From Amoebophrya sp. A120 (taxonomy: Eukaryota > Protista > Dinoflagellata), in contig CAJINV010000001.1 of NCBI GenBank assembly GCA_905178155.1, positions 1,601,904 through 1,665,903 on the forward strand: DNA of 64,000 nucleotides, read 5' to 3'. A model generated the notes under the pieces. It was not told the DNA's origin. It made no database searches and saw only the letters and a program-made list of their open reading frames with translations. Positions within the stretch are counted from its first letter, which is position 1, and each line of letters begins with the position of its first letter. Position numbers and translations under genes: made by a program. Shown in pieces: positions 9,818 to 62,957 of the stretch.

Positions 9818-12025
9818 CTAAATTTTGTCTTCTTGTTTGCTAGTAGTTTTGTCACTTCCAGGTTGCACACAACTACTCGTCACGGTCTCCTTCAACGTTT
9901 TTTCTAGTCTCTGGAGGAAACACGTCAACTCCGCCCTGGTCGCCCCGATCGCCACGGCAGTCGCGAGGTAGGGGTAGGGATACGTATCGGAGTGCGCCCC
10001 GTAATTTTTGAACTGGACACCGTCGATGGTTTTTGCGCCGACCGGGCAGGCGACGACGCGCGGGCCGCTCACTCGGTGGTTGAACAACTTCGCGCCGATG
10101 GAATTCAGGACCTGCTTGCGCTTCTTCTCTGCTTCTGCGACTATCGCGCCATCTCCTCCCGGGACGTCGGTTGCAGTGACTAGACCTGACAAATCGACGC
10201 AGATGGAGATTTTGTTTTCTGGCGTGTGCAAAATTCGCAGCTTGAACTGGTCGCACGTCTTCTGCAGTTCCTCTTTGAACCACTCAAAGTCGGTCTTCCG
10301 GGTTTTCCACAAATTCTGCAGCCCGTCGGAGCCCATGGCAAGAAACGTGATCAATAAATCGACCATTTGTGCCCCCGAGGCGCGTCCGGGATAGCACTGC
10401 GCAATTTGGTCGAGCAAGGAGAGTTTGTTTGCTGTTGAAGGTGGGTTGCTAGTCGTGCTGTTAGCTGAAGCTGCACCCGCCCCAGCGTTTTTACTGACAT
10501 CTTCTACTACTTGCGGTCCACCACCACCACCACCACTCTTCATGACCGGCGGCCTTTCCTGTGGCGCGCACACGATGGCGCCGCCGACCGGCACCATAAA
10601 ATTCTTGTCTGTGCTCTGCACCACTACATCGACCCTGCCGGTCCTAGACGCCTGCTCGATGGCCTGCATCGTCCGCGAGCACTGGAGCCCGTATGCGTTG
10701 TTGATCAGAAACGCCACGTCGTGCTTCTGGCAGATTTATCCACAGAAAAAAACCTATCCACATCCAATTTGTCATGCAAAACACGTATAAAATGAAAATC
10801 ATGTTGTTGTCATACAAAAAAGGGATGTGGATGGGTTTTTTTCTGTGGATAAGATTTTCGCGACCTCCTCAATTTTGTCGGGCACGCGGGGGGCGAAGGT
10901 GGAGGCCGTACAGAAAACGCAGAGGATGTTGTCCGCGCCAAAATCCTCTATCGCTTGTTCAATCCCGGCCACGTCGGTCATGAGACCATCCCCGCGAGTA
11001 TCACAGCAAAAAGTTTCAACGTTAACGGAATTTGTGATGCAACAATGCATCACAAAACATGCCGAAATGTGTAATGCATAGCATGCATCTTGGGCTACAT
11101 TGACATTTGTGATGCATGACTGCAATCTGTGAAACAAACCGTTAAGGTTAACACTTTTTCTTGTGATAGCTCGGCGTTTTGATCAGCTCCACGACGATCG
11201 GCGTCAGCCCGCTGGTGTTGATCGCCTTGAAGCAGCTCTTCTGGTCAATCAGGTATCAAATGCAAATATGTCTGGGTCTGGAAGAGTCATGCTGTTTTTG
11301 CATGACGCAGAACCAGAAGGTCTGGAATGGAAGCTCTAGCATCACAGGTTTCGAGAAGCGTTCGCAATGCCGAATCCGCATGACAAATCCCTGATTTTGG
11401 TGACAGAAAGTGGGCAATTTTTGCTACCTATGCATGAGAGGTTTTTCTGTGTTCGGACATGCGCATCACAAGTTTGCATCCTTCCAGACCCAGACATTTT
11501 TGCAGTTAATATCCGGGACCAGATCACGAATTTTCTGTCCTTCGTGGTGTCGCGTTGCTGCAGTGCGAGAAAGCACAACGTCATGGTCATGCCCGTGGCG
11601 AGGGGCACGACGAGCGCGTTTTTGCAGTTTTTAAAGCCGGCGAGTCGCACCGCGTCGAGCGCCAAATACTTGCACAAACTCGCCAGTAAGCTGCTTCCGG
11701 CGGCTTTGGGCTGTTGCGCCACCAAATCGCCGGACCGGCCGACGCCGTGCGTCAAGCCAAAGTGCCGCTCCTGGACGAGTCGGGAAAACACGCGACCCTC
11801 TCGCTCCCCTACCCCAACGTTCCCGTTCGCGTTGTTGGCGTCCATGAGGGAAATTTGCCGGAGAAAGCTCTCGATCTCGAGGTCGGTCCAGGGCTCCTTC
11901 GGAAGTTTCCGCTGGGTGAGGAGCACCATGATTTTCTTGGACAGACTGTTAAAGCCCTGTTCCGCCTGCTGCACGTACCCCGGGTCGAGCAGACCCTGCA
12001 TCTGGCCGAAGTGGGACGCTTGCAT
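9818..12025 (-). CDS. SEPSECS: O-phosphoseryl-tRNA(Sec) selenium transferase (4 exons)
   Basis: Motifs GVGEREGRV, HGVGRSGDL..QPKAAGSS, VVPLATGM, WSR|IDQKSCFK, STFAPRVPD, INNAYGLQ, VQSTDKNFMVPVGG, YPGRAS; frame is restored by removing three TAT...ATA elements. Confidence 0.95.
10737..10851. mobile_element. Introner (115 bp, ~29-bp TIR)
   Basis: tatccacagaaaaaaacctatccacatcc...ggatgtggatgggtttttttctgtggata; direct repeat agatt; restores VAKI|CQKHDV. Confidence 0.92.
10999..11168. mobile_element. Introner (singleton family)
   Basis: tatcacagcaaaaagtttcaacgttaacgg...ccgttaaggttaacactttttcttgtgata; flanks gcgag/gctcg; frame restored (KTPS|GDGLMTD). Confidence 0.82.
11254..11511. mobile_element. 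Introner, family D
   Basis: tatcaaatgcaaatatgtctgggtctggaag...cttccagacccagacatttttgcagttaata; flanks tcagg/tccgg. Confidence 0.9.
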
Positions 12026-12847
12026 CTTTTTTTCTGTCTTCACGTGGTGAAAGCGAAAGCGCGCTTGCTGCTGATGTTTTATTTTGTGAGTAAATCAAAA
12101 TCTAGCTCTAGCACAAGCACTAACTACAGAGGTCGAATAAATTCAGTATATCCTGCTTGTAGTCGGAGACGGAGTTCTTGTTGTCGCTGTGGTAATGAAA
12201 CCCGTATAGCAAAACGACCACGAAAATGCACAATCTAGACAAGAAGACTTCCACTTCTGCAGTTGTCTACTTGAGTTTGACGTTCTTTGGCTCCCCTTCA
12301 ATCAGACAAGCGCGTGCGTCTTCGATCGGGGTGCCAGATCATCTTTGTCCTTCGTACTGAACAAATTTTATACACTAATTCGGCAAAGAAATTTACAATC
12401 AAATTACGAGTACTGGTGAACTCCCAGAGATCTTCACCTGGTTGCTCGATCACGCTGGTGCCTGGAGCCTCGATGAGCTTTCTTCGCCTGTAGTCTCTGT
12501 TGCAAAGAAAAGGCGTTCTGTCGCAACTGTGACTACAGCAGCAGCCTCTACCGCCTTTTCTACTTCGGTACCCGATAGTGGTTTCGCCACATCAGCGCTA
12601 CATAGTCGTGATCTTTTTGATCTTTTTTCTTTCCACTTCAACAACACCGTACTTATTGATCAAACTTGGGTAAGCCAAATTGCGACTCGGGACCAACGAG
12701 AATGAAACTGATCAGCATAAGCTAGGCTGGGTTGGCACGAGGAAAATACGGGCGCCTAGAACACACGAGGGCCCTGACATCCGCAAATAGAAATGCCGAA
12801 AGCCGTATGCGTCACTTTTCACCCGTGTCTTGGTTGCAAATCTTCAG

Positions 12848-13918
12848 TCAGTCTCCTTTTTTTCGTTTCTTTTTCATTGGGCTAGCAGATGATTTTGAAG
12901 ACTTTGCTTTTGATTGATCGGTATTTTTCCTCTTCGCCTTCCCTACCTCGTCTCCGGCCCCGCACTTTTCAAGTAATGCGCTCTCCGGAACCCCCATGCG
13001 CTTCGCGATGACTTTTACGACCGTGTCACTGTCCGTCCCTCCGAGGCCGTCACTTTTACCGTGCCTGAGAACTTCTAACAGCTCCGTATCTTCTGGCTTC
13101 CTCGCTGCGCTGTTTTTCTTGTCCGGACTTTTCGTAGTTCCGATTGTTCCACCCCCAGCTGATGCATGGTCTGCACAGCGGAATTTCGCGTACAGCGCGC
13201 GCTGAACTGAATCGGCAGTCCAGATGAAGAGATTCGCATCTTTGTTTGCCGCACCAGTAGTTCTTGTAGAAGTTGCTGCAAAATTCAGTTCTTTTGCCTT
13301 TTCAACACAGCGTTTGTTGAATTCTGCGTAGATTTTCAGGGTGTATTTCAGATCGTTCTTGCCCACCGACTCCGGAAAAACACCACTACCCAACAGGGCT
13401 TCGTCTGACATGAAGGCGCAACACTCCGGCAGCACAGCCGCTACGACGGCCGACGCGGTTGCCGGGCCGACGCCGAATAAGTGCTTGTCCAGCTGCTTCA
13501 CCCCCTCCACGCCAGCTTTATCCAGTTCGATCGATGTACTGTTATTTCCACCTCCTTTAACATCTTCAACGAGCGTCTTCGCGATCGCGACAGTGGCGTC
13601 TAACCAAGCTGTGTCCAACTTCTCCTTCGTGTTGCTCTCCGCTTTTTGCAACAGCCCCGGGCGAAAAGTGCCCTTTTTCAGCTTCCATTGGACGACCTTC
13701 GAGAGCTTTTCCTTCGTCAGCGGGCCCGCGAATTCTGTGGACACGAAGTGGTCCAGCTTGGAAAGTTCGAGTTTCCTGGCCTCGTCCATTGTGCTGATGG
13801 TGAGGGCGGCTGGGTACTGTTTCCGCGCGTCAGACCAGTTTGCGAGAGAATTTGACTTCATCAACGCCCGTGCTGCGGTGCTGCCGTCTGTAGTGCTACT
13901 TGATGTTGTGCTCTTCAT
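12848..13918 (-). CDS. Amun-like protein with putative HhH DNA-glycosylase-like motif; basic C-terminus
   Basis: Intact 356-aa ORF with LTKEKLSKVVQWKLKKGTFRPGL, GVGPATASAVV, FMSDEA, KYTLKIY; C-terminal KKKRKK NLS-like stretch. Confidence 0.7.
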   Translation of the reverse strand: MKSTTSSSTTDGSTAARALMKSNSLANWSDARKQYPAALTISTMDEARKLELSKLDHFVSTEFAGPLTKEKLSKVVQWKLKKGTFRPGLLQKAESNTKEKLDTAWLDATVAIAKTLVEDVKGGGNNSTSIELDKAGVEGVKQLDKHLFGVGPATASAVVAAVLPECCAFMSDEALLGSGVFPESVGKNDLKYTLKIYAEFNKRCVEKAKELNFAATSTRTTGAANKDANLFIWTADSVQRALYAKFRCADHASAGGGTIGTTKSPDKKNSAARKPEDTELLEVLRHGKSDGLGGTDSDTVVKVIAKRMGVPESALLEKCGAGDEVGKAKRKNTDQSKAKSSKSSASPMKKKRKKGD

Positions 13919-14927
13919 CTTTTGCGAATATTGTCGACTAACTATGCGAATTAAAGGGCTCTTATGCGGATCTTAAGTCGCTGAGATACAGTTTTGTGTT
14001 TCAAGATCTACTTTAACTTTTTACTCAACAACAACAGCACAAGGCGGTCTAAAGGCAAAGTTCTCTTGTAGCGTCATCGACCGCCAAAGTAGAAATACAG
14101 ACCGAAAGGAAAGTTGCTGCGTGCTTTCGTTTTCCCAGCAAGTGTGTTGTCCGGTCGTGTCCAGGCACGATCACGGTAATAGAATTAGAAAGCCTGTCGT
14201 GCATCATGGAAAAACATAAACATACCGAGCGACACAGGGCCGTCCGGGCGAGCAAGAGCGCGATATTACAGGTACCATCTGTATTCTGTTTCGGGAGAAG
14301 AACTGAAGAGCTCAAGAACAATGGATCCCGGACCTTCTCCTTCCGATCGGGGGCAAGCGTCTTGTCAGACTTGTATTTACGCCAGATAAAAACTCCCGTC
14401 GTCCTGTCTTACTGACGACAACGTCATCAATGTGATTGTCCTTCGCTACAAGTACAAGCGTGGTCGGACTGACTGATTATATCAGAGGACATCACCACCA
14501 CCACGGTCCTTCGATCTCGGTGCTTGCGCCCGGGAGCCAGCACACACCCTGTGACGCGTACATCGTGCAAATCACCTTCCTGTTACTGCACTGTACTTCC
14601 ATTAGTCAAAATCCACGCTTCGATCGGGAAGATCGACATACAAGGTGGCCCGTTGCGAGCACGAGTTTTCAATTTCAAGCGAATAGGAAGAAGTAGTTGT
14701 TTAAAACATGTACGTAATTGAGTAGTACATGTCTATATTTCAAGCGAAAAATAGGAATACTATATTCAGTAGTACTATGCCAAAACAGAAATGACAAAAA
14801 CTTTTTATCTTTTCTTTCTTTGTACAAGTTATGACTTTCGTTTTACTGCCTATGTTTGTAGAGCTTCCCGCCGGCATTCTTGCACAGCGAGCCGGGCAAC
14901 GAGAAAAGAGAAAGCCGCGGTCTTTTT

Positions 14928-17900
14928 TTATGTTGTTTCTCTGGACGAGAACGGGTCCCGCTCCCCCGGGAGAAAAGCTGGCACGCGGAAAAAGTCCTCC
15001 CTGCTAACACATCGTGCCTCGTCCATAATTGGCAATGCGCCTGCTGCTTTCCGTTTTGTTTGCGCGAAGGGAAGCCGAAAGAGATCGGCGTCGGGAGAGT
15101 CCACTATCCCGCGCACGCTGGTGCCATGTAGGTACTTTGGCGACACCAGTTGCACCTCCTGGAGTTGCCGTGGTTGGAGGGCCCACCGCAAACCTGCATC
15201 GTAGCTCTGCAATGGCGCTCGAGGCATCGTTTCGGCGAGGTGTGGATGTAGCAATTCTTCTTGCGCGGCACCCGCAGAACTCGAAGAGATCGGTAGGACG
15301 GCAAACTTTGCCGCCCCCTCGTCATAGAACAAGATTGCCACTGTCGTCCGGGTAGTTCCCTCTGGTGCTTTATTCTCCATGGGGCCGCTCTGAAAGTCCG
15401 CCACTGTGGTGTAGGCAACCGGCAATTGCAAGGTCGGATGGTACTCCACAAACGCTCCGCCCGGGGGCGCCTCAAATGGAAAAATTTCCTCGAAGTCTGT
15501 GTTTGGCCTCACTGCAAGCGCGCCTCCGTCAGAAAATGAAAGCGTCGAGCCGCCACCGCCAAAGTCTTCCGCTTTCTTCCTGCTGCCATAGGGGAGGGAC
15601 TGTGGCATCAGCTTTCTGATGCGAGAAGCGTTCTCCAACAAAAGGAGACGGCTATTATCGTCTTGAAAGAAGAAGTAGTATATACCCAGCCATAACTTGT
15701 CGCAGCCACGTTCTTGATCTTTTCTGATCATTCTCGCCTCCTCGTCGCGGTGTTCCAGAGTCTGGACGATCCCTCTTTGGCCCAACTCAATAATGCAAAT
15801 GTTGGCCCGATCGCCGTCACTTCTTTGGATTTTCAAGAAAAGCCAGTCGAATAACTCCGCCGTGCGACATTGGTCTGCCAGCCTCGTGCGACGTAGGTCT
15901 GTCAGAATAGCAGTGTTCGTGTTCTCCTCGTATTGCAGTTTCTGTGCGATGGTGTCACTCAACCCTTCAGCGTTACGCATCACCATCTTCACAGCCCTCT
16001 CGCCCTTTGAAGGGGCATCTTGGAGGTCCTGGTCCTCCACCAGCCCTGATAACCGGATCGGCAACTCCAGCCCCAAGCTCTCAGCGACAACTGAGGCCAC
16101 AGACGGTCCGGACGATCGACGAAAAATCTGCTCTATTGTGGATGCCGCACCGCCTATCATGTCAATCGTGGCCGGTGCGGACGGACCCGTTCCTGCTGCT
16201 ACGCCCGGCATAGGATTCATCTCGTGTTGCCTTCTAGTCCAATTACTTCGTGCCCAAGGCGACGCTAACCACAGACGGTCGAGACGCCTTTCCTCCGGCC
16301 AGTCCGGCCTTGGTTGTGTTCTCTTTTCCACCACATCTAAGTACTGTTCTCGCTTCCCCTCAGCATCTCTCATGCGCAACCGCCCGAGGCCGAAACGACC
16401 CCGGTACAGGACGGCGTCCTCTACTTCTTCGTCCTGACAAGAGGAGTCTTGCCCTGCTCCTCCTCTGGTGCACGCTGCGGCGGACAATCTGGCCTCCACG
16501 TTGGCTGCGAAGGTAGTTGGCTCGAGCGAGAGTTGCTGCATTAGACTGACAGGAAGATCGGCGAGCGAAAGCAGAGGCGGTGGCGCGAGGAAGGCCGGGG
16601 AAGTGGAGCGTCGTTTTGCTTCAGGAGTTGTACCACGGAAGTCGATCCCGGCGTATTGTAAGTCAATGCTGAGAACCAACTCGTGCGCGGGGATGTATAC
16701 GTCGCGCGCCTGTTGCAAATTCTTGACGTAGGAGGCAGTTGCCCGAAAAACATCGCTCCCCCGGCAGATCGAGGCAGTGCTTCCCTGATGTTTCAAGAAC
16801 ACCTTTGGGATTTTGTGGAGATTTTTGAGAAGCAAAGTTTGCTTTTCTTTTTCCACCGCCGCAGCAACTACGTGCATCTCCAACAGCCTTCGTTCGAATC
16901 CGTTTTTGCGCCAATCAATCGAGCCGGCGATAGGTTCGTTAGCAAGGTTCTTCGAAAAGAAAGCCGCTTCGCTCTTCAATGCGTCGCGAGCAGAGTTGCA
17001 AGCATGCGTGCATTTATTTTTTCCCATACCCTGCGATGTCTCCGTACTCAATGGCAGAATCACCGTTGCGACCCAGTTTTCGAGACTTGTCAACAACGAG
17101 TCGAGCAGGTCCGTCGCCAGCGGTATTGCAGCTTTGGTGAGCTCGTCCAAAACGCGTTCGGCGGTTGCGCGGTAGTTTCCCCGCGTGGCCAAACGAATAC
17201 CCGCATTGTTGGCATGCAGTGGCGCTGTGAACGTCGTGAGAAGGTTGCCTAGAACCTGCATAGGTTGCTTCATCATTCGCGCATACCAAATATACGAAGC
17301 ATCTTGCGACGTTTGAGCTCCTGTACCCGCCCGAGTTTGGCTCTGTTTGCGCCCCCCGAGTTGGGGTCGAGGCCCTTTCGCCCAAGTGTCGTCGATCGCG
17401 GTACGGATGTTCAAATCTTTTTCTATAAACGTCGGTGCCCAGGTCGACATTTCGTTGAAAACGAATTGAGCTGCCGTCACCGTCCCGAGCACGACACCCA
17501 GGTACGACAACTCGTCTGCCGGTCCAGCTTGCTTCTTCTTCTTCTTCTTTTGCTTTCCGGCTGCAGCAACGGCGGGCGCCGGGCTGGACGGGCCTGCGCC
17601 GGCCTCTTTTGCGTCGCTGGGACTAATTGACGCGAGGAAGGCGCGCAACACAGATTGTGACTGGGCCAACGAGCTGCGCACCCGGCGTACCACCGCAATT
17701 CGGGCCCAAAGCCGACCCAAGAGCTCCCCCCCTTCTGGCGGAAGCCAAGATTGGCCCAAGGCGTGGATGCCCGCGGAGGGGGAGGGGGCCGACGACTTGT
17801 TAACATTGCCAAAGTGCTCGCGAAAAGACTTGGCGCAGCCTTCCTGATAGGCTGAAAAATCAAATGCGGACGCAGGCGCTTCTTCTACATTGGCGGGGGA

Positions 17901-20285
17901 GACACGTCGACCTCCGGCGCCAACACTTCTCTCCTGCTCGTGCGCCTCCACCCCTGTTGCTGTCGCAACGTTCAGATAATCCGTCAGCTTTTTGGAAGCG
18001 AATTCAAGACCGCGCGGACTGCCACAGTGCTGCAGAGCGACTTGAGCCTGGCTTCGGAACCAATCCAGAGGAGTCATCCAGGGTTCTTTTTGCTTTTTGT
18101 CGTTGACCACGTCGTGACTTTTCTCACTACCATCTTCTGTTGCTCCGTCGCTGCCCGCACTCTGATCCTGCTGTGTGCGTGAGGAGCTTCTGCTAGCGCT
18201 TCTGCTACTTATTTTCTGAGAAGGAGAGCGCGAGGTGGACTTTGGACGACGACGGGAACTGGACGACGATCTTTTCCGCCCCCGCCTCGCAGACGCCGGC
18301 CGGCCTCTGGTTCCGGTATGGAATGCAGAGGGCGATGCGTCGGCTTTTGCTGCCGCAAGAACTACATCGCCAGAGCTAGGAGCAACCTGGGGCGAGGACG
18401 TCCTCGCTGAAGCTGCATATTTGTGCCTCTGATACAGGTGCGCAAACTTCGCAAACCGCGTTAACAATTCTTGCTCCAGCTCAGAGGTCTGCGACGGACC
18501 ACGTGGTTGAATCCCTGCGACTGCGTCGCGCGCCGGTGTCAGGACGCTACTCAGGCGCGTCTTCAGATCCTGAAACATCGCTTTGCAGCTGACATACAGC
18601 TGCGGGGCGTCGGCCTTTTTGTTGGCGAATTCATCTTTCGGCGGAACAGGAGCGGCACCTGCCGCCCCTGCCGCGGTACTTGGCTTTCTGCTCGCGCTTG
18701 CCTGTTCTGCAGGGGCCGCGGAAGACGAGGGGCTTGTCCACCTCGTGCTCTTCAGCCACCCGCCGGGGTTCTCACAGAACTGCTTTGACAGTAGGTCCAC
18801 TGGCGCTGCGCCAATTTGGTTCATCAATGTGAAGCCCGATGCAAGCTGGTCCGCCAAGGCGTTTCCGAACGTGTAGGCCTTGAGCGACGTTGTGGCCTCG
18901 CTAGGAACTACTTCCTCATCGGACACAGGTTCGTCCGAACTGGAAGTGGTTCCAAAAGCTGCATGACCCGCCTGTTTCTTGCGAATCACGCGGGACGAAC
19001 TCCGCACCTGGAGGATCTCCACATGCGGCACAGAAAATTTCGTGTGGTCCCCTGCTGCTAGTTTTGCCAACGTGGTCCGAAAAGCAGCCGTAAGCCCAAC
19101 GCGGGAAAACAAGTCCGCCATAGGCTGGGCCACGGTATTTTGCATGTGCCGCGCAAGGCCTGCCCCAGGTCCTCCGCCGTCCACGACATCCGCAAGAGCG
19201 GGCAGCTCTCCGTGAAAAATCCATTCCAGCGCCAGGACTAAGTCGAGGGAATCCGTCGATGCGAGCAATTTCGCGCGCTCGCTGGCCGGCGCACGACCTT
19301 CGACTTCCGAGCTCTCAGCTTTCATCCGTTGCAGCTCGTTGTGTACCAGATTGAGTCCCTGCAGCAATGCCTCGCCCTCGGCGACGGCGGTCAGCGCATT
19401 ATCTTTCCAGGAGTCCGAATAAAACAAAAACGCTCTCTCGTCTTCCGTCGATGGTTCCTTTCCCACCCCCCGACGTGCTGGTGTCCTCAAAAGCTTCTGT
19501 GCCTCTTTGAAGCGGATTTGCCCCAACCCCGCGGCAAGTATGTCCGGAACGCGGTCGTAAAGCGAGTCGATCACTTCGGAGGCGGCTTTCTCTTCCGTGA
19601 TTTTCCGGGCTTCCGCCAGGCCGCGCGTGTTGTAAGCGACGATCCCCAATTGCGCAAAAGTAGGCGTAGTAGATGAAGTTGCTCCAATGTTGCGTGGGCG
19701 GGTGCTGGTGCTACTTCTCCGAACGCTTGCGTCGGTGAACAGAAGAAACCTGTCTGTGTCGTCGTCCGTAGTGCAGAAGTCGGAATGGGAATCCTCGACG
19801 GTGCGTGTCCAGGGGAAAATGATCTTCACACCCATGCCACCAGATCCGCGTATACTGTGTGTCATGCAAAAACTTTAGTACACCAGAAGTTGTATATGTA
19901 CATACTTTCATTTGGTTTAATAGCACCGCGACAGAAGCAATCTAACCAGTTTTCGATCATGCAGTTTGCCCGGTCGCATGGGTGTAATTTGCAACTAGTT
20001 CTGTGGGATACAACCATCTCCACGGCACTCGATCTGCCGCTGCAGATAATCATAATGCGTGTTTCCAGCGTTGCCCTTGTACGGCGCGGTATACCGAAAG
20101 GTGATCTTTTGATGGTGCGCTAGAGAACCAGACTCACCAGTGCCGCCGCTACTTTTCGTCAACGAGTCATTGGACGGCTTGCCTGACGTGATCGAGAGCC
20201 CTTGCACCAACATCCGCAGATTGGACGGAGTTACCGTGCCGCCCGCGCAGCTGAAGACGAAGACCAATCGAACAAAGCCCAGCAT
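14928..20285 (-). CDS. ~1,724-aa protein with N-terminal hydrophobic leader and RNase H1-like domain
   Basis: 4.9-kb open frame joined in frame to an upstream exon (ATG 20285) by removing 19833-20010 plus 5 nt; motifs LLFTDAS, AEGEALLQGL, ASTDS, GNALADQLA. Confidence 0.75.
19833..20010. mobile_element. Degenerate introner
   Basis: catgccaccaga...tctgtgggata imperfect inverted repeat; flanks acacc/caacc; internal tgtcatgc motif; removal keeps the frame. Confidence 0.55.
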
Positions 20286-21532
20286 CTTGTTGCTGTGCGC
20301 GAGTGAGTCCTGCGAGAGGTACAATAGTCTTGTTTTTACTTAGCGGCGCTCGCGCTCCACCGTGGCCCTTAGCTTTTGCGTATAGAAAGAAGCAAAGTGT
20401 AAAAAAATAAAGTTGAAATTATACGTATGGCAGTGACTGACTGAAATACAAAAATTTTAGTTGAGCTTTGCTTTCTTCGGGCGAGACAGCTTAAATGTGG
20501 GCTGCGCGTGCGGGTTAATACTAGCTGTAGCTACCAATAAATATGAAAGGGAAATAAAGTGAAGACCTTTAGTGTTCTAAAAGAACGACAGGGTAGCTTT
20601 TTAACTGATGCAGCTCGGATACTTTAGGAGACTATTTTTTTTTTATATTGTCAGCGGAAAACTTTTTCCGAGCTGGGACTGGCGGAGTTGGCACACTCTC
20701 AGTTCCTTTGCTTTTTGAGTTTTCTTATTTATATATTGCTCATCCAGCACGTCTTGATGATGGTCTTGCGGACTTTGAAAGAATTATTCAGGTTCGTTAG
20801 AAAATTCTCCTAGGCGAAGTGTCCCGAAGGAATAAAAAACCTGCTGAAAATCAAACCTATGAGTGCGACATGCGTGCTCGTTTGCATTTGCGAAGACCAA
20901 AAAAATCGAGAGTGACTTTGATCCATTCACCGCCAACAGGGTTTAGCGACTCATGTTGACCTCGATTTAAAACCGATCACTAGTAAGATCTTGATCTCCG
21001 GAGGTCACGGAAGTCCACCAACCGGGTTTTCCGATTCATGACGCTTATTTTTCTAAAATACCGATCAACATCAATATTAAGATCTCGATCTCCTGTGGTT
21101 ACCGATTACTTTCAAGGCTGCTTGCTTGTAGGCTCGAAGATCATGATTCGACAATATAAAGGAAAAAAGATGCACGCAAAAGCAGCGAGCTACTTTTGTG
21201 GCGATTCATTCAGATCTGCTCTCAATGCGATTTGTTTTAATGAACCTGATCGGCATCTTTTGGCGAATTTGATCTATGAGCGTTCAATATGAACAAGAAC
21301 ACTTTGTACCTCGCAGCGATTGGCTGCTTCACCACTTAAGTAGTGATCCACTTCAATCTCGATACTACGAATACCAAAGCCTTTCCCTTTGACTAGACAT
21401 CATTCAATAAACTCCGGCGGAGCAAAGAGCTGTATATATAACAGGGGGAATGCGCCTGCATTTCTTTGCAGCTGAATCCGCATTGATTTCTGTATCACTA
21501 CCGTTATCTTCCCAGCAGAAGTGGGAGGTCAG

Positions 21533-22573
21533 CTATAAGAGTTGAACTTTTTCGATGTTTACGCTGTATTCCCCGTCGCCGTCATCGTAGAAGTCGGTGC
21601 TCAACAAAACACCAGAGTCGGGCGGGTTCTCGGTATTGTCCATTTCATTGAACGGGACACCTTTGTGTCTGCGGTCGTGACCGGTTTGCTTGTGGATTCC
21701 AAACGTTTTTTTTCCCTTCTGCAAATCCCAGACCGTGGAACCCTTCCAGACGGACGCTGCGGCTGCTTTTTTGTCTCCGTACACGCGAAGGCCCAAGGGG
21801 AAAGAATTACTACAGCTCTCACCATCACCACCCCTGCATTGCTCCCAAACCACATAGACGTACTCCGCGTCCTCGTCCCTTTCCTGCTCGGGCGGCACGT
21901 GGTGTTGGTCTGGAGAAAATTTCACTTTCTGGATGCAGAGGTGCTCAACGGCAGAAGGCAGCTTCGAACCCTTTACCGTCGGGATGTCCGGGTCGTGTGG
22001 ATCGAAGTAATCGTGCAGCTCATAGTAAAGTAGTGACTCTTCGCGGTCGTAGTTCTGTTCGTCCAGCCCGGTGGTCCCATCAAGAACGGCTTTGAAGTCA
22101 AGCCCGTCGATTTCACACCCGTTGTCGTCCTTTAGCTCGTTCTTCAACGTCTTCCCAAAGTTCCGTCCCGGCTTCTGCTCCGTCTCTGCAAGATGCAACT
22201 TCGGCAGCATGTTAAACACGTCCGGGTTTTTCTGCAACCCAAGGCGGAAAGCGTGCGCACGTGCGGTGTCCAAATTTTTGAAGGCGCACAAGATCTCTAT
22301 ACGGTCCGTTCCCGTGTCCTCATCCAAATAGGGTTCTCCCGGTTCAGAATCCTCAAGCCACTTGCGATAAATCACGTACAAGTTAATAGTGTCCATCGCA
22401 GGCTTTGGCTTGCTCTGTTTCGATTTCGCCTTCGCCTTAGTACCAGCGGCTTTCTTACCCCCCGTGCTTTCCTCCTGAGGCTTCGCACCATCCGTGTTCT
22501 CCTGAGCCTTCGTCTCTTTTTTCATGACTGGGGCCTTGGAGCCGCCTGCAGAAACCATTTTCTTTTTCACCAT
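21533..22573 (-). CDS. Hypothetical protein (Lys-rich N-terminus, acidic body)
   Basis: Intronless 346-aa ORF with ATG start and coding-like composition; no family recognised. Confidence 0.75.
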   Translation of the reverse strand: MVKKKMVSAGGSKAPVMKKETKAQENTDGAKPQEESTGGKKAAGTKAKAKSKQSKPKPAMDTINLYVIYRKWLEDSEPGEPYLDEDTGTDRIEILCAFKNLDTARAHAFRLGLQKNPDVFNMLPKLHLAETEQKPGRNFGKTLKNELKDDNGCEIDGLDFKAVLDGTTGLDEQNYDREESLLYYELHDYFDPHDPDIPTVKGSKLPSAVEHLCIQKVKFSPDQHHVPPEQERDEDAEYVYVVWEQCRGGDGESCSNSFPLGLRVYGDKKAAAASVWKGSTVWDLQKGKKTFGIHKQTGHDRRHKGVPFNEMDNTENPPDSGVLLSTDFYDDGDGEYSVNIEKVQLL

Positions 22574-23498
22574 GGTGACAACAGAGCGATGAAGCTATAT
22601 GGAGCTATTCTGCACTTTCACAAACACAAACCAACAAAGGAACGAAGTTCGTCCCGGTTCGTGTTGTTTTTGACTGCTCGTGTTAGTTTGTATCTATGTA
22701 TACGGACGAACAAATGTCTTTGCCGCCTGAGAACTCCTCCTCCGGTAAAAGCCGTGATCTTATCAGACGGTGAGGCCCTCTTTTATCCGTTGAACTTTTC
22801 GGACTACTGGCACTTCACCTAATGATCTCTACAAAACAAGAACATGATCATCGCGTAGAAAGAAACGGATCACGCACGATTCGCTGGGATCGAGAAGCCA
22901 TTGATTTCCTGTGCGAATGAATGATCTCTGACGTTGAAGCGACAACACAACACTTAAGGCACGCGTTTCTTGCTTGGAGAAGAATTTGTAAGACAGCTAA
23001 AAAAGTACTAGACCTAGCAAAGGTGGAACAATCACATGACACAATGTTCTTGACTAGAATTAGAAATCGGCGTCCGACATAATGTCTTCGTCTGCACACC
23101 GTATGAAAGCAATTTTCTTCCACCTCCATGCGATGAGGGTCTTTCCCCAGCAATGTATGATGCAGCAGCCAAAATTCGAGTCAACTTCGAAGCCGAAGCG
23201 TTGCTGTCAGTCGTAGACATGACAGGAAGTTAATAAATAAATTCATCCGTGTTTCGACGTTTCCGCGGAACAGTGATGCCGTATCTGCATCTGAAGGAAG
23301 TCGAAGTCAGGACCGGAAGTTTTCTGTTCGCACAATCTTTCCTCGCGCACAAAGAGATATAATTTGTAGGCTACAGAGTCGGAGAAACCAACGTCTTCCT
23401 GCCTCCCTCTAGTAGATCAATATCAAAAGTGCATGTGTTCTTGTATCCAAAACCAAAACTCTTTGCGGTAGAAAACAATCAAACAGACATTATCTACT

Positions 23499-26400
23499 TC
23501 AAACCCGATGCCGGACCAACGCGGGCGAGACACTGGCGATCGGGGGATCAATACAATTGGCAAGCATCGTGTATGGCTTGCAGGGGCAGTGACACTCCGT
23601 CTGCCGCAATGTCACACCGACACCGCCGTCATGGTCCTCCCGTCCCGCTTGACCGTTCGGTGTTGCGCTGAAATTGAAAAGTGAACGGAGTCGCAGCAAG
23701 CTTTGCGGCAGGCAAGACAAAGACACCGTCCACCTCGGTCGTTGCCCGGACGATCGGAACACCATGTCGCCCCCACAGGTCGACCTCCGCACCCGTGGGG
23801 CATCTTTCTTGTCCGCACTGGAAGTGAGTAACTTTGCAGAAATCTTCGCGGTAGAAGGGCGCGAAGCTGCAGGTGGTGGGCCACTTGCAGAGTTGTAAAC
23901 CTGCTTCGGCTGGACGAACGTGTGTGCGAACGAGGCCGCACTTTGTCTTAGCGCGACGCGATCCTGCGCCGGCGCAGCGAGAAGTTCATTCTCGGCCCGC
24001 CGCGTCAAGTTCGAGGCGCGTCTCCGCGGGGCCGCGTCGAGGGCAGTATCTCGTCCTGTGGCGGTTGTTCCGTGAGTATTGCCGGCAACTAGCTCAGGCT
24101 GAGCGTTTGGATTTCCGGGGATTCGGATAATTCTACTGCCAGTTAGTAGAGAATTGGAATTTCTAGAAGTACTTTCATCTCGTCTGCTCGACGTCCCAGC
24201 ACGACGCGACGGGATCGAGGATTGGTGCTCTTTTGCTTGAAGACTTGGTCCATGACGACGAAGAAAGGCTGCTCGATTCACCGCATCCGCGGCCTGGTGC
24301 CTCAAAAGGGTAAATTCGTACGTGCGGGCTCGATTAATTAGAGCTTTAACACCCGTTAGCATGAGAAGTGGTGAATTTGTAGTGAATTTTGCATGACAAA
24401 GTGCAGATGAGTCCGCCGGGACATTGTCCCTCTTGCCCTTCTTGGAAATGGATTCTGCACACCGCAGAAGTCAAGGCTTGCTTATGCGGCGGGCAACTTC
24501 TAGACATGGCCTGGGTGCTGGTCTTTGGCCATGTCTATGCGCCTCCCTGTGCTTGCATAAGAGCACTGTAGCAGCCGCGGCAAAGACGCCAAAAAGAAAG
24601 GCTGCGAAGCACATGCAATTAGGGAAGAAGGCGCAAAAAAACGAGTGAAAGGACCAGGCCGAGAGCTTTGACGCCTCTACCCGGCAGGCGCGTGAACTCC
24701 CCAGGCCTTTTCGGCAGAATATAGACGGGCCGAGTGCAGCAGAGGGCGCTTGTCTTTTCCCCTCGGCCCCACTTCCCAGGGCCTACCCGCGCGATTTTTT
24801 GAGCACTTTTTTGCGCTAGACTTTGCTTATCACGGTCGAAAAGTGGCGCTCGGTGAATTTTGGGGAGAATTTTGAAAAGGGCGCCGGTGAATTTTGTCCT
24901 CCGGCTCCTGTTCGAAATTCGCTAGCGCGTGGGAAACTCCGGGTTTTGGGGCTTCAAAAAAGTGTCGCAAAAGCAAAAAGCTTCAAAATTCACCAAGAGA
25001 AATCTTGACCTGGGAGCCACCTCGAAAATGTCTCACTCCGGAGACAAAGACACACCTGGGGAGTTGTAAGCAGGGCACAGCAGGCGAAGGAAGCTAGTGC
25101 CCGCGGCCGAGTCGTGCCTTCCACCCGAGGCTACTCCCAGATGTCCAACTCCACGCCACAGCCAAAGCCCGTGAGAGCGTACGTGTTGAGCTAGTGGGTG
25201 CCCCTGTGTTCAGGCGTTCCTTTGCCTTTCGACAATTCCGGAGAGGAACTTCTGAGGCAGACGCGCAGAAGCATAAGAGCCCCCCGACCCACCTTCTCTG
25301 GTCGCTAAATACGCACTACACAGCCCGGCGAGCCCCCGCAAGACCACCTCTTTTGGTGCTGCAAGCGCCACCACGCGGCGAGCAGCCCTTCAGGCTATGT
25401 GTCCATACGTAGCGCACTTCTCTTTTAAGTAAATGCAGGTCACGCAATACAAATTCACTGCAAATTCACCCTTCTGTACGCCAACGCCCGTTGAAGACAT
25501 AATCGATTCACCGCATCCGCGGCCTGGTGCTTCAAAAGGGTAAATTCGTACGGAGCGGTGCCTATGAAGGGAGAATCGACAAAATTCAACCCCCCCGGCC
25601 TCTGGCTAAAGCCAGCGAGGGTGCTGGCTAAAGCCAGCAAGGGCGCTGGCTAAAGCCAGAACACCGCCACAGGCGGCCGGATGCTTTTTGGTAATCGCGC
25701 GGCCTGTCCGATGAAAAATTTTCGTGGTCACAGAGCCGCCCGAAGCGGCGCTCTGTGATTTTCTCTATCACAGGATCCCGCGCGAAACAGACGCGGCGTG
25801 CCGAAACTTTGCGGCCTTTCTATTGGGGCGGCAGCTCGCCGGGCCACAATTGAACGCGTGGGCCTCAGCGGAAATGGGGCGCGCCCCCACAGACGGCCGC
25901 ACGCAATCGCGAAAAGGGACTGGGCGAACTTGATACCAAAAAACCCCAAAGGGCGCCAACGGTATCGGGCCCCGCTGGGAAATATTTTGCACAAATTGCG
26001 CAGCCGGTTCGGCGATTGGGCGCTGCGGGTTTTTCTCTTCTGCAACAAAATCGAAGAAAATTTGCGCAGGCAAGCCAACGTGGCAAGCCCGCAGAAGGTG
26101 CGCCCGGCTTTTCACGGAGGCCACACCATGGGGCCCCGCGCGTCCTGCAATCCCGATACCCCACCCCAGCCCCCCCTGGCCCTTTCTGCTTTACTTTTCC
26201 CCGGGATTACATAGCCGGCGCTGTAAAGCCTGGCCCGGGCGCTCCCGCGTGTTGACTTCTGCCGGCGCCCCTGCCTTCTTTCCTTTTTCGTACAATATGA
26301 GTCGCGGGCTGCTCGATTCACCGCATCCGCGGCCTGTCAGTCAGACGAGGCCGGGCGACCTAACAACTTTAATCGGGCCCTAAAAAGTTGCTAATTTGAA

Positions 26401-30693: not shown

Positions 30694-33600
30694 CTAGCAC
30701 TGGTTCTTGACTTGCGAGTAGACCTGCCGCGAGTAGTCGACACCGACCACCAAGGGAAACACGTTATGCAATGCAAAAGCATCGCACTAGTATAAATTGC
30801 ATTACAAATTAGCCCAGCTTTACAAATTGAATTTGTAATGCTAATTCACCTTGAGAAAGAGACTTGTAGTGCTTGATTGCAACTAGTACGAGTGCCAAAT
30901 ATAGCCGCCGGGGCGGGGGTAGTGAGGTCGTGGACGTTTTTTTGCCGACCGCCGCCTTGGCCGCGGCTTTGCTTTTTCTGGGCTCGCCATACCGCCGCGA
31001 GTAACGTTGGAGTGGAGGGCTTGGATTAATACCGAGGCGCCAAACTTTTTCGGAATTTTTCGCCGAGCCATCTCCAAAGCTACCGACGGAGATCCTCCCA
31101 TCCTCTTGACCACCCTACCAAAAATTATAGCGGGCGACACTTTTCTTTTCATTTTGGAAACTTTGCAAAATGGGAAACGATATCCAGAAGAAAAAGAATG
31201 CGACTCGGAACACAAATCCGCATGGTATGGTGCCCATTCTTTGGAACGAAATCAGGCGACCCCAAAAAAAATGGAAATCGATTTTTAACATAAAAAATCG
31301 CAAAAAACTTTTCAAAAACTTTCCGAAAACTTTTCAAAAACTTTCGCAATGTTTCAGAAAAAGTTGGAGTCCGCTCGTGATTCGAAGTTTTTGAAAAGTT
31401 TTTTGAAAGTTTTTTTTCCCTTTTTTTGTGTTTTTCCTTTAGAAACCGGAAAACGGCAAAGAAAAAAAAACCACGTCCGACTTATTCTCATGGCTCTACC
31501 CTCCGCCCTGATTTACATTTCATGCCCCACCCCATGACCTGCGAAAAATCAAGGAAAATTTGCAACCCGGTCTCCGACCCACATCACCAGAACGACAACA
31601 ACGATCGCCATCACCACCAAGCAATATCGGGTGGGGGATAAACTCTTTCCCACCTGGAATACCACGGACCATTGTGTTTGAAAGGCTCGGCGAAAAATTC
31701 CAAAAAAGTTCTCCACATCGAAAATACTGCCCTCCTCCCCTCCAAGTAACGTTATGCCGCACGGTATGGCGGCCACTTAGGAAACGTCACAAATTTTGGC
31801 CCATTTCCAAAATTCCTTTCCGAAAGCCAGCCCCGATGCTATGGGACCGATCCGGTTGCCAGGGGGGGGCGCCCAAAAAGCGAAGCAAAACCGGGCCCAT
31901 AGCATGCGGATTGGCTTTGCGCGTCTGGGGCGCTTTTTATTTTTCGCGTTTTTATTTTTCACGTCGGCGCTTTTTGCAAAGCTCCCCAGGCTCTAAAACC
32001 GACGAAAAGGCGGCCGCTTTCGCGGCCGCCCAAAATGCTCCGAAATCGCGGCCGTGCCATGCTGTTTCGCTGTTCTGATTTTGGGCGCGTTTTTTGCGCG
32101 CCCCTTTTTGGGCGCCCCAAATCGCCAGAAACCAAGGCGGCGGGCGCCTCAGAAGGGCGCCCCTTTTGCCGGCTCCCCTGCGTCGTTTTATCCAGTGCGA
32201 ATCGATAGAATTGGCTCGGGCTTGTTTGACAACAAAGCCCCGGCCGCTTGATAAGTGCAAATTTTTTATGTCCAAAAACGCTTCCGGCCGCTTGAAAACT
32301 GCCGGTCGTTTTTCAGGGTATATGGCAAAAAAACTCCCTGGTTAGAACCGTTCGGTGACCTCACTACATACGATACTTTTGCACAGGATACACGTACTGC
32401 CACAGCAAATCCAGCCCCTGCGACAGCAAGCCCAACAAGCCAAACTTCAGCACCGCCTGTGACACCACCGCGGCCCAGGAAAACCGACGCGCGGACCCGG
32501 CAAGCACGACTTTGATCTGAATACCATGAAGGGTGCGCACGCGTCGGAAATGGGAATGTTTGTTCGGCAGAAGATGCGGAGGACGACGCTCGGGATCTGC
32601 GCCTGGATGGTCATCTTCTGGGCCGTGACTGATCTCTGGCACCGGTGAAGACGCTCCACCCATGATGTTCCCGTCGCTCTCGCTGGGCGTGGTGAATATT
32701 CTCGATGAATCTGTGTTCATCTTCCCACTAATCATTTTAGAAATTGCAATTGGCTGCACCTCCCTCAACTTGTATTCAGAAAAGGGAATGCGATCGACAG
32801 TGGCGGTGTATTTCGCGGGGACGCTTCGGTTTCGATTGCTGTCGATTGCTGAACTCCAAAAGGACAGTTGCTCTTCGTCCGGTGCAAAATGTAGGGTCAG
32901 CACCAGCACCGAGCCCTTTTCACGCACCACCGTGTCGTCAGGCTGCTTTTCGTCGAGCGAGTCGATGCCAGCGGCGGAAAGTAACTGCCCGAGGGAAACG
33001 TCGAGGGACGTCTTCGGTTTGTGTTTTTTCGAATTTTTCTTTTTATTTCTCTCGTCAGCTCGTCCTGCATCAGATCGCTCGCGGCCCGCTTCTCCTATAT
33101 GAGGATCTTCCGCGAGGTGGACCGCGACAGTTGGAAATGGCTGTTTTACAACGCCGTCGAACCCGAGAAACTCACCTCGTACGGCCGGGTCCGTGGTGGA
33201 GTACAGGAACGGACACCTTTTCCGGTTCTTCCGATACTCCGAGCAAAATTCCACCGCCTCGGCATGCGCAGTCACGGCCACGCGGAAGTCCGGAAGATTG
33301 GCCACATAACGGTCCTTATTAAATGTAAAAATGTCTGGGTCTGGAAAAGTGTAGACTTGTCATGCAGATTTTTCATGGCCCATGAGGTCTGGAATGCGGG
33401 ACTTAGCATGACAGACTCTGCGAGGTCTCTGCCGTGCCTATCCTGCATGAGAAACTCCCCTCCAACCTGGTCAAAAGTGTGCAGCTTTTGGGACTCATGC
33501 AACGCAGATTTTCGCATGCTTCAGATTTACGATGACAAATTGAAATCTTCCAGACCCAGACATTTTTGCAATTCATAGTCCTTCCGAGACAAACGCGTCC

Positions 33601-35134: not shown

Positions 35135-36460
35135 CTATGCGATTACATCCTCCGACGAACCCGAAGCCCCTCCTCCGTTCGCGTTCAAGTCGTCCAAGGC
35201 ACTGTCCGCCCATTTCGCAATTTCCCTGGCGATGCTCTTGTTACCCTGGACGAAGGATTTTCGCGCGATCACGATTTCCCGTTCGAGCTTGCGAAACTCA
35301 AGATCAGGTCTCCCGTCCATCAGCAACAGTTCCTTGCCGCTCTGCACGTCGCGCTGCGCGTGGTCGAACTTCTTCCGGGCCAGCTTCGTCTTCGCGCGTA
35401 AGAAGTAGGCTTTGGACACTTTCTCTCGCGCGTCGGACGGCGAGACGGTTACTTCGAAATCAAGAACATTCGACGCCGCCGGCGGGGGGTCTTCGCTACT
35501 ATTTGTTCCGGCAGCACAGGATCCCTGTGAAGATGTTGTGCTGCTGAGGACCAAATCACTGTAGAGGCCGATGACCACGGTGAAATCCTGTGCGGCTTCC
35601 AAAAATTTTCCGAGTTTCTCCAAACACCTGCCGCGGTTCAGGTACAGCGCCCCGGTGGTCGTCCGATCGACCACGATTATGCCTTTATTTTTCTCGCCTT
35701 TATTACTCCTCGCGGCGCTTCTGCTGGCGAGGCACAGGCTCCCGGGATCCGTCGGGTCCTGAACGAGGATGCACGACGGAATAAAATTGGAAGACTGGTC
35801 TTCTACAGGCGAAACCTGCAGTACCTTCATGCCGTCGATGCCAATCGTGTAGTGCTCGAATGCGGCGGTGTAGTCCTGTCTCTTGAACAAAAGGTTCCCG
35901 TCCTCCTTGATGCGCGAGGCGGCGGCAAGGACGTGTTGCGTTGACCAACTTTCTCGACTGCTCGAGGATGACGTCGCACCACCTCCTCCGCCCATGGCCG
36001 CGCCGATGACCAGCTTGCGAAAGAACGCAAGATCCCATCGTTTGTTTAAATAGTTTTGGTCTTCTGGTTCATCTTCACAACTCTGTTCGATCCGTCGAAT
36101 CTTTGGATCCCGCATCTCCAGCAGTTCGCGCTCGAACCCGAGAAGTGGGGTGAGCTTGGAAACAGGAATATTACACAGTTCGTCGCTCGGACCGTCGCCA
36201 TCGATATTTACTCTTGTGGGAGTAGAATGTAACGTTTTATCGTCCTCTTGTTGTGTCGTGCTTTGCCTTAGGCTGTACTGCTGCTGCTCTGGGGACAGAG
36301 ACGCATCGAGCAACAAATCCACGGTGTCGTCATCTAGAAAGGAAATTGTCGCTCGTCGCTGTTCTTGCTCGGACACTCGGACACGGACGGTCTCCCCTAC
36401 GGAAAAGTTGGTTCCACCAGGAAATGCCTCCATGGTTTTCATCTGAGTCTGATTTTGCAT
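35135..36460 (-). CDS. TPR-repeat protein
   Basis: 441-aa ORF; ASRIKEDGNLLFKRQDYTAAFEHYT, LYLNRGRCLEKLGKFLEAAQDF, KAYFLRAKTKL. Confidence 0.85.
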   Translation of the reverse strand: MQNQTQMKTMEAFPGGTNFSVGETVRVRVSEQEQRRATISFLDDDTVDLLLDASLSPEQQQYSLRQSTTQQEDDKTLHSTPTRVNIDGDGPSDELCNIPVSKLTPLLGFERELLEMRDPKIRRIEQSCEDEPEDQNYLNKRWDLAFFRKLVIGAAMGGGGGATSSSSSRESWSTQHVLAAASRIKEDGNLLFKRQDYTAAFEHYTIGIDGMKVLQVSPVEDQSSNFIPSCILVQDPTDPGSLCLASRSAARSNKGEKNKGIIVVDRTTTGALYLNRGRCLEKLGKFLEAAQDFTVVIGLYSDLVLSSTTSSQGSCAAGTNSSEDPPPAASNVLDFEVTVSPSDAREKVSKAYFLRAKTKLARKKFDHAQRDVQSGKELLLMDGRPDLEFRKLEREIVIARKSFVQGNKSIAREIAKWADSALDDLNANGGGASGSSEDVIA

Positions 36461-37429
36461 GTACTATATATGAATATGAAAGTTGTGGCACTCTGAAGTT
36501 CACTTGGCGTTGATTGTCTGATGTGTTAGGCTGCACTGCAGGAAACATGAACTCGAAGTCACAAAGCAGTCTTTTTGCACTATCCCCAACCGCGGCAACA
36601 CATTTCGTGCATGATCATGCAAAAACCACCGAAAAAAAAAACAAAATCAGGATCGGTGCTACCACTAGAAGATCGGACCCACAAGAACTTTACAATTGTC
36701 ACTTCGTTTTTTTTCCTGTCCTGATCTGTGCGTTTAGGAACTGGATGATCTGTAACGGCACTACGAGCCTCTCCTCATCAAAAGGTGGGCCAGATGCGGG
36801 CGATTGCACATGACCTCACTACATATCACGACATTCTTCGTGATGAATACAGCACTCGGTACGTGGCGGCGGCTCGTGTGTCTACACTGAGTTCTTTTTC
36901 GGAGTTATCGACTTCACGTGTTCATTCTCTTATGCATGATGGTATACAGTGGCAGCATTAATCTCATTTCTATGCGCATTCAATGTTTAAATACTTCAAG
37001 TTCTCAATCTTTCCGACCCGTGATTACTTATTCTAACCACGTGCTTCATGTCACAATTCATGTTCTTCATGCCTCGCGCAAACGCTACTTGTTTTCTGTC
37101 ACTGTGCTCTATCTTAAAACGCGACACTGGTGCCCATATCGCTTCCACAACTCCGGTGGTGCTTAAACACCATCCAAAAGCATGGATGTCTTAGTTATTA
37201 CGCGCTATTTTGGAAAAAATCTATACTTCATAATTAGGTGGAACGATGTTTTTGCAACTTTTTTTCTGTCATCTTCACCTCTGTAGCTTTTCGATGCTAA
37301 TGCTTTTGCAGCACCAACAGTTACAGTCAAGTTGAACTTGAAGCTGGAGTGAAATAGTCATCACAACAACATAAGAAAGCCAATTTGATTTCATTAGTGG
37401 TCCTTTGATGTGCAGCCGCAATCATAGCA

Positions 37430-62363: not shown

Positions 62364-62957
62364 GAATGATGGCTGGTATCTCGTACGCATCTACATCTAC
62401 ATACACGTAACCCAAATATTGTAGCTGTTGCACCACACTTCATGATTTTTGCAAACAGACACTCTCGAAGATGAGTATTTTTCCAGGTGGTAGGGTTGAG
62501 GTTGTGCACGCAAGAAAATGAAATCACGAAGGATGAAACACCCCAGGGATAGATTTGCTCTTACTTTCGGTACGACAAGAAATACTATATTTTGTTCGAA
62601 AATTCTTCGCGGAAAAAAGGTGGATGAACACATTTATGCCACCTGAGAAGTTGCCTTTATTGCGAACCGGCTAGCTGAGGCTCTTCTAACAAAATATACA
62701 TGAGTTTTTTGTGCGCTTTCATTAGTTTTGTTTTTAATACACCAATGAACGATAGTAATCTTCCCAACTCTACTGCGCAAAAATGCGCTCGTATCCTCTT
62801 CTTTCGTTCATGCAAACGCAATCGCCATGTGTCGCCTAGAATATTACTTCTTCACGTTTCTTTTTCCGTAATACATCGACACCAGACTGGTGCGCTTCGA
62901 CTTTGCTCCCACCTGTGTTGCAAAAATACTACCTCACACAGCAGCTGCGCCCTCACT

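Follow-up and report, generated by a model that had tools for sequence, protein, structure and literature searches.

A giant protein family of Amoebophrya sp. A120 with stretched RNase H-like motifs and a signal-like leader, a candidate secreted nuclease

A spliced gene and a family of three

A 64,000-nucleotide (nt) stretch of the genome of the dinoflagellate parasite Amoebophrya sp. A120 (assembly GCA_905178155.1, contig CAJINV010000001.1, positions 1,601,904 to 1,665,903 of the forward strand; hereafter the window, with position 1 at its first letter) carries on its minus strand a two-exon gene, GSA120T00011112001, that encodes a protein of 1,715 amino acids (aa; database protein P0002). 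This protein and two paralogs conserve D-E-D-D motifs in the order found in ribonuclease H (RNase H), and hydropathy supports a signal-like leader in all three. A sequence-only reading of the window had described the product as a giant protein with a signal-like leader, RNase H1-type motifs and tracts resembling a nuclear localization signal (NLS), and had proposed it as an effector acting in the host nucleus. Here we examine what stands at the locus and how far that proposal can be carried. Statements drawn from the literature refer to the accessible parts of each paper.

In the list of open reading frames (ORFs) of the window, the locus appears as two frames of the minus strand, a long one of 1,648 codons at 14928-19874 and a short upstream one that opens with an ATG at 20285. 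One contig each from runs X1 and X4 skips the segment between the two exons (Table 1), with an unambiguous junction, and joining exon 1 to exon 2 restores one frame whose translation is identical to P0002. The gene is real, spliced and read in a single frame. An in-frame stop lies 19 codons upstream of the ATG at 20285 and no earlier ATG stands in between. The upstream exon is thus joined, as the sequence-only reading had it, at a junction that lies at 19802-20011 instead of the proposed 19833-20010. X1 and X4 come from one study and are only presumed to be RNA, none of the runs listed for the locus being recorded as RNA; together they make one line of support, possibly drawn from the same data as the gene model. 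Two raw-read runs, X7 and X8, gave 0 reads here, which bears neither on the junction nor on expression. Low-depth X1 contigs are also present in 20142-21033, up to ~750 nt upstream of the ATG, and could reflect a long 5' untranslated region, transcription running on from the gene upstream, or a DNA component of this run. The intron, 210 nt long with GT..CA ends, is ordinary for this genome because non-canonical introns are the majority in A120 (more than 60%; PMC7789003). No inverted repeat of at least 5 nt was found between its end regions, so that it is not an evident introner.

As far as found, the family is restricted to A120 and has three members. A word search with aa 30-380 (7,994 candidates scored) returned P0002 itself together with P0003 (1,616 aa) and P0004 (1,421 aa), and the same three A120 proteins were the only ones recovered when 7,989 longer candidates were searched with a profile and when HMMER was run in full against 1.84 billion representatives. 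These searches have limited sensitivity and can miss relatives, given that a word search with aa 660-1715 found P0002 and P0003 only and missed the known paralog P0004. Pattern matches in metagenome contigs (351) and viral contigs (17) yielded no confirmed member. Both paralogs can be aligned with P0002 over their whole length, with identities of 51% (P0003) and 32% (P0004), and their consecutive gene numbers (GSA120T00021335001 and GSA120T00021336001) suggest a tandem pair. Conservation extends to the far end of the protein: a three-sequence alignment shows blocks shared by all three paralogs within aa 1222-1660, a C-terminal part for which Pfam, the word search and the ESM Atlas (aa 1215-1660) returned no family. 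A literature search that reached few subscription papers returned no description of this family or of a secreted RNase H effector, and the accessible parts of PMC6176090, bioRxiv 2025.04.10.648098, PMC13524835 and PMC11453091 hold nothing on the family.

RNase H motifs and their subtype

All four motifs named in the sequence-only reading are found in the 14928-19874 frame at the places it gave, with D115 at 19733, E233 at 19379, D275 at 19253 and D409 at 18851. The four acids are invariant in 3/3 paralogs, and the motifs around them are invariant or nearly so even though overall identity to P0002 is only 51% and 32%. We scored the motifs as a chain of six position-specific blocks with free gaps, against shuffled sequences, using archaeal-type references from a single bacterial phylum, in which 72 of 121 genomes gave 75 RVT_3 matches and the best 30 were taken. 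The three proteins score 52.6, 62.9 and 56.0, versus shuffle maxima of 31.8, 33.4 and 32.1 (0/200 shuffles each, z 8-10), and the best of the 74 other, shorter ORFs of the window reaches 15.4. Scored jointly, the three-sequence alignment gives 55.8, versus a maximum of 13.2 in 300 column shuffles (z 13). One block falls elsewhere in the single-sequence run of P0002, and one in that of P0004; the joint run places all six as expected. When each block is instead allowed its own best site among the 1,161 gap-free columns, all six land within columns 85-338 and in native order, an order that ranks 1/720 at 4/4 pseudocount settings and whose score is reached by 0/1,000 within-block shuffles. The ESM Atlas, given aa 55-445 and no family, names RNase_H and RVT_3 as top clusters, and 10/10 of its best family-bearing matches share family or clan, at a score of 0.79, which is lead level.

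The acids are separated by 118, 42 and 134 residues, versus 40, 24 and 50 in reference L083, and inserts bring the domain to about 2.5 times its normal length. Sitting between core elements and varying among the paralogs, these inserts would be surface loops. Long inserts that break the match can also explain why the standard profile methods fail here, and those failures, which weigh against an RNase H domain, are many: Pfam reports 0 families at E up to 10, PF00075 and PF13456 included; NCBIfam has 0 matches; a PDB sequence search gave no relevant match, only compositional Arg/Ser ones such as SRRM1 (E 0.013); and neither hmmsearch --max (E 0.018-0.13 at Z=1) nor hhalign (probability 3.9%) is significant with our own reference profiles. 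On the same side stand the post hoc nature of the motif test, with blocks chosen when the motifs were known and a reference set that was the second of two tried; the weak chain obtained with 81 E. coli-type references (6, 15 and 1 of 150 shuffles reach the score, z 1.4-2.6); and an ESM Atlas control in which one in three shuffled proteins either attains 0.8 or has all ten matches in one clan. AlphaFold models have low confidence (pLDDT 41 from one sequence and 34 from three), and Foldseek and VIA-align, run on the three-sequence model, list generic helical matches only (best Z 6.1). From such models the fold searches are uninformative; that RNase H goes unlisted in them is no evidence against it. 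Taken together, an RNase H fold is very probably present in aa 109-415.

The subtype can be narrowed to some extent. At anchored positions the three proteins score 45.4, 57.9 and 58.8 bits with archaeal-type references, versus 20.9, 21.2 and 17.9 bits with E. coli-type ones, in a comparison that includes no eukaryotic or retroelement references. The motifs are therefore supported as fitting archaeal-type/RVT_3 RNase H much better than the E. coli type. The RNase H1-type assignment of the sequence-only reading accordingly stands for motif order and is refined by the anchored scores and the ESM Atlas toward the archaeal type, while profiles and models leave the fold itself unconfirmed. GNPG and TNN residues, present in 12/12 displayed references, are absent in register in the paralogs; these residues have a role in substrate binding. 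At the fifth active-site position, archaeal-like RNases H have Arg where fungal and metazoan enzymes have His (PMC5348765), and Arg is found in 30/30 of our archaeal-type references; in register, the strand-5 motif of the paralogs shows Ser there instead, flanked by invariant Args that stand one residue ahead of it and three residues behind. The fifth catalytic residue is thus ambiguous, which leaves the proteins as putative members of the archaeal-like RNases H, and together with the absence of GNPG and TNN this makes specificity for RNA:DNA hybrids doubtful. Taking the second Glu of the helix-A motif as the catalytic residue was rejected since this alternative register scores negative, and DEDD exonuclease and transposase types were considered and dropped on motif order.

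RNase H is a nuclease with a two-metal mechanism. In the A120 family the four acids are invariant though only 315 of the 1,161 gap-free columns are, a pattern that favours catalysis and leaves the substrate open. Two-metal nuclease activity, as predicted from the four retained acids, is likely.

Archaeal-like type 1 RNases H (aRNH; RVT_3, PF13456) occur in archaea, some bacteria, plants and oomycetes, in the latter two as free-standing cellular genes and also in retroelements (PMC5348765). The A120 proteins resemble them in motif order and in local sequence at the strand-1 Asp, the helix-A Glu, the strand-4 Asp, strand 5 and the helix-E Asp, and there are a number of differences: (i), the domain spans ~300 residues instead of ~130 and has no Pfam match; (ii), GNPG and TNN are absent and the subtype-defining Arg is out of register; (iii), the domain is embedded in a protein of 1,400-1,700 aa with a signal-like leader. 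RNase HI of E. coli, fungi and metazoa (RNase_H, PF00075) shares the D-E-D-D order, the first and last motifs score positively with it and the top Atlas cluster is PF00075, but the A120 proteins fit it poorly at helix A and strand 4 and have no His at the fifth position. The solitary aRNH 1-3 of oomycetes, compared by description only, are likewise RNases H without reverse transcriptase, at low copy, in protist parasites and of unresolved function, but no leader or long C-terminal extension is mentioned for them in the accessible part of PMC5348765. A literature search for double-stranded RNase activity of archaeal RNase HI returned none, and such activity is not used as support here.

Leader, basic tracts and surroundings of the gene

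In P0002 the leader is hydrophobic from aa 2 to aa 13, the first 39 residues include no acidic one, and a G-L-S-[IL] motif common to all three paralogs follows the leader. Over the full length of each of the three proteins, hydropathy peaks within the first 46 residues, in windows of 9 as well as of 12 residues. The hydropathy score of the P0002 leader, 2.37, is reached by 8/222 methionines of window ORFs and by 0/78 internal methionines of the paralogs. Two SP-labelled A120 proteins have such a hydrophobic run, while A120 mitochondrial presequences (6 of 40 mTP places) are Arg-rich and without it (PMC9478091 supplement 3, both by eye). The signal-like leader of the sequence-only reading is thus borne out by hydropathy in all three paralogs, with the reservation that the paralogs were scored from later starts, M14 in P0003 and M19 in P0004, chosen after the fact. 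Their annotated starts lie upstream of the hydrophobic run, and P0004 scores 0.7 from M1 in its first 30 residues; both points count against a shared leader. The annotated start of P0003 is suggested to be 13 codons too early, which would fit M14. By eye, the in-frame translation upstream of the P0002 ATG (20286-20342, minus strand) looks similar to what is annotated as residues 1-13 of P0003. Beyond the leader, the mean over 19 residues stays below 1.4 throughout, and there is accordingly no evident membrane anchor. On balance the leader would bring the protein into the secretory pathway, a prediction we hold to be somewhat better than even.

Basic tracts do exist, as the sequence-only reading had noted, but their reading as NLS is weak. 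An Arg/Ser-rich low-complexity linker follows the domain at the same place in all three proteins, with 9, 8 and 19 RS/SR pairs per 50 residues. Of the tracts at aa 597-612 and 841-848, only the second, a lysine tract, passes a 6-of-10 K/R test; P0003 has a similar one and P0004 none, which speaks against a conserved nuclear signal, and a similar K/R tract occurs in 3/14 other window ORFs of at least 250 aa.

The coordinates of these features are collected in Table 1, together with other features of the window. Elsewhere in the window, Pfam recognizes ordinary cellular genes.

Table 1. Features of GSA120T00011112001 and other features of the window (window coordinates)
Feature	Position	Strand	Basis
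Exon 1, from the ATG at 20285; aa 1-91 plus the first base of codon 92	20012..20285	-	contigs, translation
Intron, 210 nt, non-canonical GT..CA	19802..20011	-	skipped in X1 and X4 contigs
Exon 2, 4,874 nt, TAA end	14928..19801	-	contigs, translation
Signal-like leader, aa 1-29	20199..20285	-	hydropathy only
Likely type 1 RNase H domain, archaeal/RVT_3 flavour, aa 109-415	18831..19751	-	motif chain, ESM Atlas
D115, predicted first catalytic acid, strand 1	19731..19733	-	motif blocks
E233, predicted catalytic Glu, helix A	19377..19379	-	motif blocks
D275, predicted third catalytic acid, strand 4	19251..19253	-	motif blocks
Strand-5 motif, aa 354-361	18993..19016	-	alignment, anchored scoring
D409, predicted fourth catalytic acid, helix E	18849..18851	-	motif blocks
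Basic Arg/Ser-rich low-complexity linker, about aa 596-640	18156..18290	-	alignment, composition
Lysine tract, aa 841-848, NLS-like	17532..17555	-	composition
C-terminal region, aa 1222-1660, blocks conserved in all three paralogs	15096..16412	-	alignment
SepSecS (selenocysteine synthase), at least two open frames, presumably one intron-split gene	9818-12094	-	Pfam, E 7.5e-39 and 2.8e-46
Neighbouring frames, likewise Pfam orphans, same strand as the gene	12848-13972, 21533-22594, 23499-24470	-	
P2X receptor, weak match	32364-33359	-	Pfam, E 0.041
TPR protein	35135-36463	-	Pfam
Trypsin-like frame (weak) upstream of PDZ_3 frame, likely one DegP/HtrA-type protease	44480-45514 and 41486-42343	-	PDZ_3 E 1.3e-17
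TRAF-like protein, zf-TRAF and MATH domains	52302-53504	-	Pfam
Glycosyltransferase family 8	55046-56050	-	Pfam
Shorter tandem arrays	57985-58375		
GC-rich tandem array, 13-nt unit, 15 copies, 91% match, many overlapping open frames	58472-58662		
Phenylalanyl-tRNA synthetase core	61431-62390	-	Pfam

A possible role in the host nucleus and its alternatives

The host nucleus is where A120 develops, and within 24 h the parasite has consumed it (PMC7793755). Host chromosomes shrink ~3.5-fold, and the nucleolus shrinks too, while the young trophont is still membrane-bound, and Decelle et al. state, in the accessible part of their paper, that no nuclease for this early shrinkage was identified in the parasite genome (PMC9478091). 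A secreted RNase H-type enzyme fits this gap. We hypothesize that the leader takes the product into the secretory pathway and that the protein is released into the host nucleoplasm or the feeding vacuole, where its archaeal-type RNase H domain would cut host RNA or RNA:DNA hybrids by two-metal cleavage and the released nucleotides would be taken up. The Arg/Ser-rich basic linker might serve in nucleic-acid binding or nuclear retention, and the C-terminal 1,000 residues in targeting or as a scaffold. Delivery to the host nucleus fits A120 biology; the host substrate and every step beyond the gene structure are what we infer. That the family consists of secreted nucleases acting on host nucleic acid is accordingly put forward as a tentative reading, credible and still short of probable. 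A stronger version, in which A120 would have turned an archaeal-type RNase H into giant secreted nucleases that, once in the host nucleoplasm, strip RNA and RNA:DNA hybrids from the nucleolus and the chromosomes of the host, shut its genome down and set off the early chromosome shrinkage, is unlikely as a whole. Both readings have to contend with the fact that an RNase H by itself would not degrade chromosomal DNA. Stage-resolved expression offers no help: none of the three gene ids turned up in the supplements of PMC9478091, PMC6176090 and PMC7789003, although the full tables may lie elsewhere. RNA as a structural part of dinoflagellate chromosomes was also searched for in the literature; the search returned none and the idea is not used as support.

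The main rival, in our view somewhat unlikely, is that the protein works inside the parasite itself, as a nuclear or mitochondrial RNase H-type enzyme that deals with R-loops, primers or introner-derived intermediates, its leader being a transit peptide or an incidental hydrophobic run. The basic linker kept in all three paralogs and a leader without acidic residues for 39 positions would suit such an enzyme, as would the excess of non-canonical introns in A120 (>60%; PMC7789003), its active introners, some of retroelement origin (PMC7789003; PMC12130899), and the precedent of free-standing cellular genes in plants and oomycetes (PMC5348765). A housekeeping enzyme should nevertheless have relatives in other Amoebophrya, and the search of 1.84 billion representatives found the three A120 proteins only, an absence that is tempered by the fast divergence of Amoebophrya proteins (PMC7789003). 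Another strain, besides, has an RNase H that ordinary annotation recognizes (PMC12005148), and the hydrophobic run is kept in all three leaders, unlike the six presequences seen. Should the fold have become a binding or scaffold module, or act on some other substrate, within a surface or secretory protein that leaves host nucleic acid untouched, the missing GNPG and TNN, the out-of-register fifth residue and ~1,300 further residues without an assigned family would be accounted for; this is rather improbable, given that four acids invariant down to 32% identity, when only 315 of 1,161 columns are, form the pattern expected of a catalytic site.

More radical alternatives fare worse. The resemblance to RNase H could have arisen by chance from four short acidic motifs of a long, mostly helical orphan protein with no relation to the enzyme, as one might suspect from acid spacings two to three times the normal and from profile and structure methods, none of which reaches significance. 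This is quite improbable: a stretch of 340 columns takes in all six blocks, each placed independently and all in native order (z 13 jointly), an independent ESM Atlas search names the same clan, and no other ORF of the window comes near the score of P0002 (15.4 for the best of 74, all shorter, versus 52.6). That the ORF belongs to a mobile element, whether still active or stranded not long ago, we judge very improbable. L1 and Ty3/gypsy elements do carry archaeal-type RNase H in plants and oomycetes, solitary copies may in some cases be what is left of such elements (PMC5348765), and A120 holds LTR and non-LTR elements (PMC7789003). Yet YxDD, HHCC and CCHC motifs are absent from all three proteins, in agreement with the sequence-only reading, which had recognized no reverse-transcriptase motif; Pfam finds no reverse transcriptase, integrase or endonuclease domain; and 12500-23500 holds no long flanking repeats, only short ones at chance level. 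The spliced intron, the leader and the number of copies found (three, divergent, two of them with consecutive gene numbers) likewise argue against a mobile element.

If the family does act as secreted nucleases on host nucleic acid, it would not be unprecedented in kind. Crinkler and RHS-type effectors carry transposon-related nuclease domains, and apicomplexan dense-granule effectors reach the host nucleus; the likeness would lie in a secreted protein, restricted to one lineage, that directs a nuclease module at the host nucleus. No sequence relation to the A120 family is shown for either group, and Crinkler nucleases are restriction-enzyme-like, not RNase H. On the stronger version above, the family would also be part of a nuclease activity that earlier annotation of the A120 genome missed, hidden by long inserts. 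Even on milder readings, its RNase H domain would be one that inserts have lengthened until Pfam no longer recognizes it, suggesting that further enzymes may hide among the ~59% of A120 proteins that are unannotated (PMC7789003). For the dismantling of a living alga's nucleus by Amoebophrya, these three genes are concrete, testable candidates with named predicted catalytic residues.

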